This document shows, in pieces, positions 2,208 to 6,932 of a stretch of 6,932 nt of DNA. A program made the translations under genes and the position numbers. The stretch is from a virus. Its lineage: Duplodnaviria > Heunggongvirae > Uroviricota > Caudoviricetes. Location of the stretch: the IMG/VR virus record IMGVR_UViG_2711768017_000003; one strand, given 5' to 3'. The notes below the pieces were generated by a model, which searched no databases, was not told the DNA's origin, and saw only the letters and a list, made by a program, of their open reading frames with translations. Within the stretch, counting starts at the first letter, position 1. Every line of letters starts with the position of its first letter.

Positions 2208-2879
2208 TCAGCGACCAATCACCACAACCTGACCACCGTCCCCTTCGTCTGCCGTGCTGATCTCCTGAGATACCACACGTGACCCCACGCGCATTTCACC
2301 ATACAGAACAGGCATAACATTGCCCTGGGCAACCATGTTATCCAGTGAGGAGAAATAGGTGTTCTGCTTACCGTTATCCGTTGTCTGTGTGCGGGGAGTT
2401 CTGGCTTTCGGTGCCAGCATCTGAGCCACACCGCCGAGCACCATACTGGCACCGAGAGAAAACAGAATGCCGGTCATACCACCGGCACCAATGGCAGCCC
2501 CCCATGCTGCAAGGGTGGCTCCGGCGGTAAAGAATGATCCGGCAATGGCGGCTGCTCCCAGGACAATCTGGAATACACCACCTGACTTGGCCCCGGCGAC
2601 TCTGGGAACAATATGAATCACAGCGCCGTCAGGCAGAGCCTCATGTAACTGTGCCGTTAATCCGGACGTGCTAACATCCTGCCCGGCAATACGCACCTGA
2701 TACCAGCCGTCGCTCAGCTTCTGACGAAACGCAGGGAGCTGTGTGGCCATCGCCCGGATGGCTTCGGCACCCGTTTTCACACGAAGGTCGATGCGGCGGC
2801 CAAATCGTTGCAAATCCCCGTAAAGGCAGATGCGTGCCATGCCCGGTGACGCCAGAGGGAGTGTGTGCGTCGCTGCCAT
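2208..2879 (-). CDS. I: Tail tip assembly protein I (ubiquitin-like N-terminal domain, Gly/Ala-rich hydrophobic C-terminal half)
   Basis: 223-aa ORF in the track, the same length as lambda gpI. Start ATG at 2877-2879 is preceded by GAGAGG; stop TGA at 2208-2210. Its start lies 103 nt inside the 3' end of K, as in lambda. Confidence 0.9.
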   Translation of the reverse strand: MAATHTLPLASPGMARICLYGDLQRFGRRIDLRVKTGAEAIRAMATQLPAFRQKLSDGWYQVRIAGQDVSTSGLTAQLHEALPDGAVIHIVPRVAGAKSGGVFQIVLGAAAIAGSFFTAGATLAAWGAAIGAGGMTGILFSLGASMVLGGVAQMLAPKARTPRTQTTDNGKQNTYFSSLDNMVAQGNVMPVLYGEMRVGSRVVSQEISTADEGDGGQVVVIGR

Positions 2880-3520
2880 TTGTCGGTATACCTCTCTCGT
2901 TTGCTCAGTTGTTCAGGAATATGGTGCAGCAGCTCGCCGTCACCACAGTAAATGGCGGCATGATTCGGCACCGATGAACCAAAACAGCACAGCAGCACAT
3001 CGCCCGGCTGCGCCGCTGACAACGGCACCTGATACAGCCCTGTGGCCTCCAGATTATCCAGATAGAGATTCTGACCGTGACGCCACCAGTCATCCTCACG
3101 ATGAAAATCCGGCATCTCAATCCCCGCCAGATGGTAAGCATCCCGGAACAGCGTGTAACAGTCCGTCACCCCGTGCTCAAAGCGCCGCCCGGTAAGATGT
3201 GGCACACAGCGGAACTTGTGAATCGCCCCCCGGCAGACCAGCCACCACGGCAAATCACTCTGCACCTGCAGCCGCCGGTCGGCCTCACTCAGCCAGGGCA
3301 GACCACCGGGGTGGCTGTGGACCAGTGCCACAATCTCACCCTGCATCTCTGCCTGCAGCCAGTCTTCCGGCGACATACGGAAATACGCCTCCGGCTCACC
3401 GGAGATATTCACGCAGGGGAAATATCTTTCCCCCTCCGGCGTTCTTACCACGAAGCCGCACGACTCCGCTGGAGCACATCGCCGGGCGTGCGCCAGAATC
3501 GCTGATTCTGTCTCTGTCAT
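2777..3520 (-). CDS. K: Tail tip assembly protein K, two-domain JAMM/MPN + NlpC/P60 peptidase-like protein; longest-ORF form of 247 aa (alternative SD-preceded start at 3374-3376 gives 199 aa)
   Basis: ORF 2777..3520. It contains H68-S-H70-x7-S78-x2-D81 (HSHPGGLPWLSEAD, a JAMM motif) with upstream E19-S-C-G, and an NlpC/P60-like Cys/His/His set (DCYTLF C121, NHAAIY H187, H199). The upstream ATG lies 5 nt after the L stop codon with no SD; the internal ATG at 3374-3376 has GGAGG about 11 nt upstream. Confidence 0.85.
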   Translation of the reverse strand: MTETESAILAHARRCAPAESCGFVVRTPEGERYFPCVNISGEPEAYFRMSPEDWLQAEMQGEIVALVHSHPGGLPWLSEADRRLQVQSDLPWWLVCRGAIHKFRCVPHLTGRRFEHGVTDCYTLFRDAYHLAGIEMPDFHREDDWWRHGQNLYLDNLEATGLYQVPLSAAQPGDVLLCCFGSSVPNHAAIYCGDGELLHHIPEQLSKRERYTDKWQRRTHSLWRHRAWHASAFTGICNDLAAASTFV

Positions 3521-3525
3521 GGGAT

Positions 3526-4224
3526 TTACTGCGAAAGTTTGTTAATGGAAAGGAAGCCGCCAAAGTTGCCGACGTTATTGCGAAACTTACAGCCACTCAG
3601 GCATTTGCTGCATTTATCCTTCGTGATGTCGGACGTTGGCTGGTCATATTCATCCGCGACCGCCGGACCGTGATAACCGCACTCATCGCCGCGATAGGTC
3701 CAGGTGCAGGTGTTGGCCAGCATGATACGTCCCGGAAAAACAGCGCCATCTGTTTCCGTCGGCGTGGACAGTACAAAAGAGGCACTCACCGCGCTCAGTT
3801 CGCTGCACTGCTCGATGCGCCAGCGGCTGATCACCTCCTGCTCCGGATCGGCGTCACTGTTTCCGTTGACGAAGTTCACCGCATCCAGAAAACGGGCGTA
3901 AACCTTACGCCGGACCACCGTTCCGCCGACCAGACTCTGTAGATCTTCCGCCATCCCGGTGACCATACCGTACAGGTTAGAAACCATCAGCGTGGGGCGC
4001 GTACTGGTGCCTTTGCCATTCAGTTCAAAACCACTCCCCTGAATGGGATACGGCTGATACTGTCGCCCCTGCCAGGTGACCGGCTCACCTTTTTCGTTCT
4101 GCTCATTACAGAAAAAATAACGTTCTCCACCGACCTCTGTCAGATCGATTTCCCAGAGCACCACGCTGGCCGACTGCTCCGCACGGGTGCATTCATTCAG
4201 TGTTTCCTGCCGGATATCCTGCAT
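3526..4224 (-). CDS. L: Tail tip protein L, with a cysteine-rich C-terminal region (Fe-S cluster family)
   Basis: 232-aa ORF, the same length as lambda gpL. Its ATG (4222-4224) overlaps the M stop codon as TGATG. C-terminal cysteines at C173, C182, C205, C208 and C212. Confidence 0.93.
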   Translation of the reverse strand: MQDIRQETLNECTRAEQSASVVLWEIDLTEVGGERYFFCNEQNEKGEPVTWQGRQYQPYPIQGSGFELNGKGTSTRPTLMVSNLYGMVTGMAEDLQSLVGGTVVRRKVYARFLDAVNFVNGNSDADPEQEVISRWRIEQCSELSAVSASFVLSTPTETDGAVFPGRIMLANTCTWTYRGDECGYHGPAVADEYDQPTSDITKDKCSKCLSGCKFRNNVGNFGGFLSINKLSQ

Positions 4225-4553
4225 CAGTTCACCACCTGTTCAAACTCTGCGCTGAACTCAACACGCAGCATACTGACCCGCGACGACCATTTTGCGCAGG
4301 TCACCTTTATCTGCCGCCACTCATAAGGCGGCGTCCACAGAAAGGCTTTCCAGCCCCCGTGCTCTTCCAGAAACGACTCCAGTACCATGGCCTCCTCACG
4401 GGGGACAGAAAGCGTCACGCTGTACGTTTTCAGGTTGGCATTCAGCCCGGCAGGCGCTCGCTGGGAATAGCCATCACCAAAGCGCACCTTTCTTACAGAA
4501 GGGGCCGAAGCCACATCCATACCGGGTTTCACTTTCCAGCGGAAGGTTTTCAT
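4224..4553 (-). CDS. M: Tail tip assembly protein M
   Basis: 109-aa ORF, the same length as lambda gpM. Its ATG overlaps the H stop codon as ATGA (4550-4553), with GGAGGTGG upstream. Confidence 0.93.
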   Translation of the reverse strand: MKTFRWKVKPGMDVASAPSVRKVRFGDGYSQRAPAGLNANLKTYSVTLSVPREEAMVLESFLEEHGGWKAFLWTPPYEWRQIKVTCAKWSSRVSMLRVEFSAEFEQVVN

Positions 4554-6932
4554 CGTCCACCTCCGGAGAACAGGCCACCATCACGCATCTGTGTCTGAAT
4601 TTCATCACGGGCACCCTTGCGGGCCATGTCATACACGGCCTTCATCATCTGTGGACCTGGCAGACCATTCGTACCGTCGTTCTGAATCACCACGTGATTG
4701 TTCTGATTAAAATTAATGCCTTCAGCCCGCCGCATCTGCGCCGGACTTCCGGCACCGCCCACATAACCACCTTCCGCATAGCCGCGCATCAGCCGGTAGA
4801 GATTCCCCACGCCAATCCGGCTGGTTGCCTCCTTCGTGAAGACAAATTCACCACGGTGAACAATCCCCGCTGGCTCATATTTGCCGCCGGTTCCCGTAAA
4901 TCCCCCGGTTGCAAAATGGANNNNNNNNNNNNNNNNNNNNNNNNNNNNNNNNNNNNNNNNNNNNNNNNNNNNNNNNNNNNNNNNNNNNNNNNNNNNNNNN
5001 NNNNNNNNNNNNNNNNNNNNNNNNNNNNNNNNNNNNNNNNNNNNNNNNNNNNNNNNNNNNNNNNNNNNNNNNNNNNNNNNNNNNNNNNNNNNNNNNNNNN
5101 NNNNNNNNNNNNNNNNNNNNNNNNNNNNNNNNNNNNNNNNNNNNNNNNNNNNNNNNNNNNNNNNNNNNNNNNNNNNNNNNNNNNNNNNNNNNNNNNNNNN
5201 NNNNNNNNNNNNNNNNNNNNNNNNNNNNNNNNNNNNNNNNNNNNNNNNNNNNNNNNNNNCCCCCGCCAATGGCGCTGCCGATACTCCCGACAATCCCCAC
5301 CATTGCCTGCTTAAGCAGAATTTCTGTCATCATGGACAGCACGGAGCGGGTGAAGCTGCGCCAGTTCTGTTCACTGCCGGTCAGCATCGCCGCCATATTC
5401 TGTGCAATACCATCAAAGGTCTGCGTGGCTGCACTTTTAACCTGTGACATACTGTCCGTGGCGCTCTCTTCCCACTCACTCCAGCCGGACTTCAGGCCTG
5501 CCATCCAGCTCCCGCGAAGCTGGTCTTCAGCCGCCCAGGTCTTTTTCTGCTCTGACATGACGTTATTCAGCGCCAGAGGATTATCGCCATACTGTTCCTT
5601 CAGGCGCTGTTCCGTGGCTTCCCGCGCTGCCTGCCGGTCAGTCAGCCCCCGGTTTTTCGCATCAATGGCTGCCCGTTTTGCCCGTTGCTGCTGTGCGAAT
5701 TTATCCGCCTGCTGCGCCAGCGCATTCAGGTGCTCCTGATACGTAACCTTGTCACCAAGTGCAGCCAGCTGGCGTTTGTACTCCAGCGTCTCGTCTTTAT
5801 GCGCCAGCAGGGATTTCTCCTGTGCGGACAGCTGGCGACGTTGTGCCGCCTCCTCCAGTACCGCGAACTGACTTTCTGCCTTCCACAAATCCCGGCGCTG
5901 CTGGCTGATTTTCTCATTCGCTCCGGCATGCTTCTCCAGCGTCCGGAGTTCTGCCTGAAGCGTCAGCAGGGCCGCATGAGCACTGTCTTCCTGACGATCG
6001 CCCGCATACACCTTCACGCCGGACTGTTTCGGCTTTTTCAGCGTCGCTTCATAATCCTTTTTCGCCGCCGCNTTGCGCAGATTCCAGATGTCGTCTGCTT
6101 TCTTAAACGCAGCCTCTGCCTTAATCAGCATCTCCTGCGCGGTATCAGGACGACCAATATCCAGCACCGCATCCCACATGGATTTGAATGCCCGCGCTGT
6201 CCTGTCTGCCCAGGTCTCCAGCGTGCCCATGTTCTCTTTCAGGCGGCGGGTCTGGTCATCAAACCCTTTCGTTGCGGCCTCGTTCGCCGCCTGCAATGCC
6301 CCGGCTTCATCGCCGGAACGCTGCAACTGAGCAACATACGCAATCTGCTCCGCCGTCACGTTATGGAACTGGCGTGCCATCGCCGTCAGCCCCGACGTCG
6401 GGTCTGTGGTCAGCTTCCCGAAGGCTTCAGCGACCTTGTCCACCTCCACGCCGGATGCATAGGAGAAACGCGCCACACTCTGGCTGATGGACGCAATCTG
6501 AGCCTCACCGCTTACCCCCGCCTTAACCAGTGCGCTGAGTGACTCGCTGGTCTGGTTAAACGTCAGCCCTGCCGCCTGCCCGGCTCTGGACAGGACCAGC
6601 ATACGATCTGCCGTCAGTCCCGCCTGATTGCCGGAAAGGACCAGCGTTTTGTTGAAATCGGACAGGGTTGAGTTGCCCTGATACCAGGCATACGCCAGCG
6701 CACCGGTCGCCACCGCCAGCGAGGTGGCCCCCACCATCGGCAGGGTGATCGCGCCGGCAAGCCCCCTGAACATGGGGATCATCCCGCCGAAGGAGTCCTT
6801 AACCTGACCACCCTGTTGCAGCAGGATCAGCCAGGGATTCTGCCCCCCTGCAAGCTGCGTGGCCACGTCGGTGAACTGTGCAGGCAGCATACGCATGGCG
6901 GCTTTATACTGCCCGACGGAAATCCCCGCTTT
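4550..6932 (-). CDS. H: Tail tape-measure protein H; the start codon lies beyond the window end and the CDS is interrupted by a 339-nt N run
   Basis: Two track ORFs (4875..6896 and 4550..5293) are the two sides of one gene split by the N run. The upstream piece (MRMLPAQFTDVATQLAGG... with a long helical, coiled-coil-like stretch) and the C-terminal piece (...DEIQTQMRDGGLFSGGGR) match lambda gpH from memory. The frame stays open from 6896 to the window edge, adding KAGISVGQYKAA. Confidence 0.9.
4921..5259. other. Run of 339 N (assembly gap or masked segment) inside the H coding sequence
   Basis: Read directly from the sequence. The H reading frames on either side are offset by one position, so the run length does not represent the true missing sequence. 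Confidence 0.95.

Follow-up and report, generated by a model that had tools for sequence, protein, structure and literature searches.

Gene K of a lambda-like phage as a 247-residue JAB and NlpC/P60 protein, and the origin of the 199-residue K of the lambda reference record

The window, by which the whole analysed stretch of 6,932 nucleotides of phage DNA is meant, contains the tail-tip assembly genes L, K and I of a lambda-like phage, all on the minus strand. Its DNA is 96-97% identical to that of phage 434, mEp460 and other lambda-like phages. Gene K is flanked by L and I, which Pfam recognizes as Phage_tail_L and Lambda_tail_I, and the order is the same as in lambda. The K protein has an identity of 97-99% to its counterparts in lambda, 434 and mEp460, the values being 99.2% for the mEp460 protein and 97.2% for that of lambda. 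The genes are arranged as follows.

4875-6896, minus strand: gene H (tape measure), a lambda-type tail gene
4224-4553, minus strand: gene M, a lambda-type tail gene
3526..4224, minus strand: gene L, minor tail protein L, 232 aa (Pfam Phage_tail_L, 335.6 bits)
2777..3520, minus strand: gene K, long form, 247 codons and stop (ORF translation; Pfam Prok-JAB and NLPC_P60)
2208..2879, minus strand: gene I, 223 aa, a ubiquitin-like domain followed by a structural domain (Pfam Lambda_tail_I, residues 14-97)

Gene H cannot be read through in the window because of a masked run of 339 N at 4921-5259 and a single N at 6072.

The reading frame of K is unbroken from an ATG at 3520-3518, through an internal ATG at 3376-3374, to the stop at 2777, and encodes 247 amino acids. 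The ATG at 3520 is the first start codon after the in-frame upstream stop, and the five nucleotides ATCCC (3525-3521) separate it from the stop codon of L. The internal ATG is preceded, at a distance of 11 nt, by the sequence GGAGG (3392-3388). An earlier note, made from the letters of this DNA, had described both start codons with these positions and distances and had placed E19-S-C-G in the upstream extension and HxHx7SxxD at residues 68-81; the frame, the spacer, the GGAGG and the residue positions were all borne out, the second motif reading H68-S-H70-PGGLPWL-S78-EA-D81. One lambda peptide within residues 1-48 of K is TQTESAILAHAR. The landmarks of the gene, in the order of its transcription, are these.

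3526..3528, minus strand: stop codon of L, TAA (sequence)
3521..3525, minus strand: spacer between L and K, 5 nt, ATCCC (sequence)
3518..3520, minus strand: start codon of the long form, with no upstream Shine-Dalgarno sequence
3377..3520, minus strand: 48-codon N-terminal extension, residues 1-48 (conservation, dN/dS, AlphaFold)
3464..3466, minus strand: codon of E19, the JAMM general-base glutamate, in an ExCG motif (99% conserved; aligned to the ExCG glutamate)
3388..3392, minus strand: GGAGG inside the codons CCG GAG GCG (P43-E44-A45), 11 nt before the internal ATG
3374..3376, minus strand: internal ATG, codon 49 (M49), the start in the reference lambda annotation
3278..3319, minus strand: zinc-site motif H68-S-H70-x7-S78-xx-D81 (H68, H70 and D81 invariant; S78 95%)
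2849..3190, minus strand: NlpC/P60 (C40) peptidase domain, residues 111-224 (Pfam, 49.2 bits)

At the base composition of the window a run of 48 open codons arises by chance with a probability of about 0.18. Openness of the frame was therefore dropped as evidence for the extension, the reality of which rests on conservation. An exhaustive HMMER search of 1.84 billion representatives yielded 2776 relatives of K, and conservation was scored in an alignment of 93 sequences comprising the window protein and 92 near-full-length relatives of 32-59% identity. The extension has an occupancy of 0.98 in this alignment. Within it, G22 and N38 are found in 100% of the 93 homologues, E19 in 99%, and P17, C21 and F47 in at least 94%; in the columns of the zinc site the values are 100% for H68, H70 and D81 and 95% for S78. 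Judged from these sequences, E19, G22 and N38 are conserved on a par with the putative zinc ligands.

Because the members of the alignment had been picked as full length, coverage was counted again without that filter. Residues 1-20 are covered in 97 of the 98 distant representatives that cover the NlpC domain, and the N-termini of these representatives lie at a median of 2 residues from M1 of the long form. A tblastn search of phage records gave a similar picture, 1720 of 1743 covering at least 80% of the 247-residue query, typically from residue 1-8. The sole exception among the 98 is P0249, a protein of 202 aa that is without the N-terminal 40-odd residues and aligns from query residue 47; it could have a miscalled start or be an NlpC-only TAPK variant such as those described in PMC1779556.

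The coding sequences point the same way. With 200 unique sequences taken from 246 loci, codons 2-48 have a dN/dS of 0.13, close to the values of codons 49-105 (0.15) and 106-212 (0.12). A scan of viral contigs with P0127, a homologue of 60% identity, found no loci, and the DNA-level statistics are therefore confined to relatives whose protein identity is about 75% or more. The long frame is intact in 246 of 249 loci, the exceptions being J02459, NC_001416 and OR974322, and the same number (246 of 249) have an in-frame ATG at a distance of 65 or 67 codons upstream of HxH. Conservation thus runs through the upstream 48 codons, as the homologue alignment proposed in the earlier note was meant to reveal; the contrary outcome which that note envisaged, drift or stops in this region, is absent, with E19 at 99% and dN/dS at 0.13.

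The extension also completes a recognizable domain. The Prok-JAB profile of Pfam (PF14464) matches the long form with 52.6 bits over positions 4-103 of 114, and matches a form starting at M49 with 22.9 bits over positions 63-103 only, which is below the gathering cut-off of 25 bits. A structure prediction of the long form, also proposed earlier, was made with AlphaFold2 from the alignment and has a pLDDT of 97.2, residues 1-48 being at 97-98 (a single-sequence run gave 35.7 and was discarded). In the model, residues 1-48 supply helix 3-15 and strands 21-27 and 30-36 of an MPN/JAB fold. Foldseek matches the N-terminal half to PfJAMM1 (5ld9/5lda), AMSH, CSN5 and Rpn11, the match to 5ld9/5lda having a target-normalised TM score of 0.67-0.69, an rmsd of 2.5-2.6 A over 107-109 columns and a probability of 1.0. 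The C-terminal half is matched to MepS, Spr and LytE. In a profile search against PDB sequences, the family sequence 'prEaCG' aligns with the ExCG glutamate of 2kks, 2kcq and PfJAMM1 (5lda), a column regarded as catalytic in the JAMM literature (PMC300881). The motif E-x(n)-H-x-H-x7-S-xx-D is complete in the 247-residue form and is without its glutamate in the 199-residue form.

Residues of about 1-105 are predicted to form an MPN+/JAMM (Prok-JAB) zinc peptidase domain, and residues of about 111-224 an NlpC/P60 cysteine peptidase domain. The extension would be an integral part of the former, providing helix 1 and strands 1-2, and E19 would complete the site composed of H68, H70, S78 and D81. 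According to the model, a protein starting at M49 would lose the catalytic glutamate and three core secondary-structure elements. Pfam, conservation, profile alignment, dN/dS and AlphaFold all support the proposal of the earlier note that the 247-residue protein, with the JAMM glutamate upstream of the internal ATG, is the functional form. The C-terminal domain scores 49.2 bits with NLPC_P60 (PF00877; cut-off 23). In the alignment D120 is invariant and C121, H187, H199 and H200 are at least 90% conserved; C121, H187 and H199 are candidates for the NlpC/P60 triad.

The best anti-Shine-Dalgarno duplex at the ATG of the long form has an energy of +0.7 kcal/mol, which amounts to no Shine-Dalgarno sequence. 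The gap between the L stop and the K ATG is 4-10 nt in 221 of the 226 loci with a locatable L stop, and 5 nt here. Since this ATG has no Shine-Dalgarno sequence and follows the L stop so closely, initiation there is probably due to ribosomes that have finished L and start again, and translation of the long form by coupling to L appears likely. Such coupling would give a low expression of K tied to that of L, which would suit an enzyme absent from the virion (PMC10721106, PMC12617516). K is like the coupled pairs of phage late genes in its stop-to-start distance of 5 nt, in the missing Shine-Dalgarno sequence and in an arrangement that is kept across relatives. It is unlike them in that a short spacer separates the two codons, which do not overlap, and the coupling is in this case what we infer from the arrangement.

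The earlier note gave K of the lambda reference annotation as 199 residues and took this for a choice between two start codons. The length was accurate, the reference feature being 14276..14875 with its start at the internal ATG. The assumption about the choice of start did not hold, as the frame of the reference is closed upstream by the omission of a single nucleotide.

3386, minus strand: G present in the window and absent from J02459/NC_001416 after reference position 14266 (alignments)

The reference K has GGAGGC-TATTT where the window has GGAGGCGTATTT, and the extra base is window position 3386; in other terms, GGAGGC-TATTTCCGTATG of the reference stands against GGAGGCGTATTTCCGTATG or GGAGGAGTATTTCCGGATG in the window and phage 434. 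The upstream ATG of the reference, at 14133, is out of the K frame and opens an ORF of 76 aa only. The extra G and the 247-residue ORF are present in LC730321, PV340536, KT232076, lambda imm434 and DE3, five records that are independently determined lambda or lambda-derived left-arm sequences. Over the whole genome LC730321 differs from J02459 at 15 places, two of which are an additional G after 14266 and a missing G at 138. The other differences are a C inserted after 20832, in the region of the known stf frameshift, and 12 substitutions. The lambda notes of a commercial supplier presumably describe the same two changes, 'G deleted at 138, G inserted at 14266', in agreement with the comparison of LC730321.

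An 80-nt query across the site matches 122 phage records, four of which are identical to the reference version: J02459, NC_001416, OR474059 (flagged UNVERIFIED) and OR974322. The last two also agree with the reference, and not with LC730321, at position 138; this shared base fits, without proving, that they are reference-derived assemblies. In complete E. coli genomes the site occurs in 3940 of 5426, at 7345 places, and the shorter reference version was found at none of the 7345, the best identity to it being 98.8%, which corresponds to a gap of one base. The simplest reading of these sequences is a one-base omission in the reference sequence of 1982. The omission would close the upstream frame and leave the ATG at 14276 as the only start, hence a 199-residue K that has been copied since. 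Full-text searches of the accessible literature for 14266 and 14267 returned nothing relevant as a published statement of the correction. Lambda stocks have been compared with NC_001416 in PMC9997739 and in bioRxiv 10.1101/2025.08.29.673000, and K is unmentioned in both.

The shorter version might instead be genuine in the stock that was sequenced, in which case laboratory lambda would be frameshifted in K and would live with the short form or with ribosomal frameshifting. A real stf frameshift in laboratory lambda provides a precedent (PMC9997739), and the shorter version is common to four records. Two of these, OR474059 and OR974322, match the reference at 138, as reference-derived sequences would, and the former carries the UNVERIFIED flag; the G is present in LC730321, PV340536, KT232076, lambda imm434 and DE3, and no place among the 7345 in E. 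coli genomes has the short version. In addition, tail assembly requires K (PMC12617516), and the glutamate of the JAB domain would be lost. A genuine deletion is thus regarded as very improbable. Still less credible, to the point of being negligible, is the reading that the reference is right as it stands, with a 199-residue K and 48 upstream codons that are an untranslated spacer, open by chance. The annotation of J02459/NC_001416 and its copies in DE3 and lambda imm434 agree with this reading, as do the Shine-Dalgarno sequence before the internal ATG, the want of one before the upstream ATG, and the chance probability of about 0.18 for the open run. The supposed spacer, however, has a dN/dS of 0.13 and contains invariant or near-invariant residues, the catalytic glutamate among them; it is covered in 97 of 98 distant homologues, the short form falls under the Prok-JAB cut-off, and the internal ATG itself is missing in 39% of close relatives. 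As far as sequence comparison can tell, the spacer reading is already contradicted by the conservation data.

The same internal ATG bears on a further possibility, that two products are made, the 247-residue JAB-NlpC protein and an internally initiated protein of 199 residues with a role of its own. Nested products of this kind are found elsewhere in lambda, namely C/Nu3 and S107/S105. The anti-Shine-Dalgarno duplex at the internal ATG has an energy of -9.5 kcal/mol, similar in strength to those of genes M (-10.8) and I (-9.3), the value for L being -7.2, and this strong pairing is the reason why gene callers choose that start. GGAGG at 11 nt and the internal ATG occur together in 142 of 246 close relatives, and the 199-residue clusters in databases have about 11,000 member sequences, the start often having been picked by gene callers. 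Some phages have NlpC-only TAPK variants (PMC1779556), and the 202-residue homologue P0249 is without the N-terminal region. Against two products stands the variability of codon 49: of 246 close relatives, 149 have ATG there and the other 97 have ATC, ATT, ATA or CTG (Ile/Leu), and 65% of distant homologues have Ile. Of the 97 loci with no ATG at codon 49, 82 still have GGAGG; a conserved internal ribosome-binding site was rejected on the ground that GGAGG persists where the ATG is gone, and GGAGG is explained as a by-product of coding, CCG-GAG-Gnn for P43-E44-x. The spacing of 11 nt is above the optimal length. In the AlphaFold model the product starting at M49 would carry about 57 residues of a truncated MPN fold lacking helix 1 and strands 1-2, a fragment unlikely to be stable. 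Two products are accordingly considered unlikely, and a narrower version, in which lambda-type phages with GGAGG and the internal ATG make a 199-residue isoform (NlpC/P60 and a JAB remnant) with a distinct role in the tail tip, somewhat more so. If this isoform did exist, it would have been given up in the relatives that have Ile at codon 49.

At its 3' end K overlaps gene I by 103 nt (window 2777-2879), the two being in different frames. The ATG of I at 2879 is found in 245 of 246 related loci, and a second ATG (M14) is missing in about 80. In the lambda records PV340536 and KT232076, gene I is given as 573 nt (190 aa), with a GTG overlapping the K stop as its start. A 190-residue I would be cut within its ubiquitin-like domain (residues 14-97 of the 223-residue form according to Pfam), a start-site problem like that of K. 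The overlapping part of K, residues 214-247, has a dN/dS of 0.28, above that of the rest of K, and a pS of 0.19, compared with 0.25 in the rest of K, and the last 21 residues have an occupancy of 0.40 in distant homologues. This pattern fits a dual-coding constraint together with a dispensable C-terminal tail.

The two-domain nature of K has been recognized for some time. A list of JAMM proteins from 2003 already includes lambda K (PMC300881). In 2006 a JAB and an NlpC/P60 domain were assigned to TAPK, with the prediction that it severs the ubiquitin-like domain from TAPI (PMC1779556). Virions contain no gpK (PMC10721106), and the cryo-EM structure of the tail tip shows gpI from residue 101 onwards only (PMC11101478). 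In the I protein of the window the ubiquitin-like domain ends in ...AKSG100-G101 (2577-2582). This end, together with the visibility of gpI from residue 101, is consistent with cleavage of the ubiquitin-like domain from gpI at the Gly-Gly or close to it. From the literature it would follow that, in the course of tail-tip assembly, the JAB domain cuts the ubiquitin-like domain off the N-terminus of gpI, and the product of gene I is the likely substrate of K. [quoted passage not shown]

With PfJAMM1 (with SAMP2, 5lda) and AfJAMM (1r5x), K shares the motif E-x(n)-HxH-x7-S-xx-D, the MPN fold and the alignment of the glutamate. Like the prokaryotic JAMM/MPN+ peptidases that act on ubiquitin-like proteins, it has a ubiquitin-like partner in its neighbourhood, gpI (PMC1779556). 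It differs from JAMM/MPN+ peptidases in being fused at the C-terminus to an NlpC/P60 domain and in serving virion assembly, not protein modification, and its predicted target is a peptide bond inside gpI, as opposed to an isopeptide bond. The second domain resembles MepS/Spr of E. coli and LytE/CwlO of B. subtilis in its PF00877 match, in its fold matches and in the conserved Cys and His residues. Unlike these proteins, K has no signal peptide or cell-wall-binding module, and is cytoplasmic and absent from virions (PMC10721106); the substrate of its NlpC/P60 domain may be gpI rather than peptidoglycan.

The gpK/TAPK of phage 434 (OL657226) and of PV340536, and the RefSeq 'C40 family peptidase', are the same gene in the same L-K-I-J order, and gpK of 434 and PV340536 also starts at the long-form ATG, 5 nt downstream of the L stop, and has the same JAB and NlpC/P60 architecture. 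The reference lambda record alone differs from K of the window, having 199 aa and one base missing upstream of its ATG. The start of K is annotated in several ways.

434 (OL657226): K annotated as 744 nt
lambda PV340536: K annotated as 744 nt
lambda imm434: K annotated as 600 nt
DE3: K annotated as 600 nt
KT232076, locus 716-1351: K annotated as 636 nt (211 aa), with an in-frame GTG (codon 37) as its start

The start at codon 37 in KT232076 is a third K start in circulation, and it too removes E19. Among close relatives in the protein database the 247-residue clusters have roughly 50,000 members, and the 199-residue clusters about 11,000.

The reading favoured here joins four statements: K is a single 247-residue protein of a JAB and an NlpC/P60 domain; the 199-residue call stems from the omission in the reference; the long form would be translated by coupling to L; and the protein would trim gpI. 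We put the probability of this joint reading at about 0.86. Since several GenBank and RefSeq entries give the long ORF and publications on the JAB domain go back two decades, the finding is correct and already known; the 247-residue start of K is a sound point of annotation and adds no new mechanism. Its practical value is as a warning about the K entry of the lambda reference. Lambda is the reference phage, and the 199-residue K of RefSeq/GenBank is still copied into new annotations and analyses; a structural survey of 2020, for example, took gpK as 199 residues with a peptidase domain only (PMC7291167). Because the cause is the omission of one base after 14266 and not the choice of a start codon, it is the sequence that has to be corrected, and not only the feature. 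A gpK cloned, modelled or mutated from the reference coordinates would be without the catalytic glutamate and part of the JAB fold.
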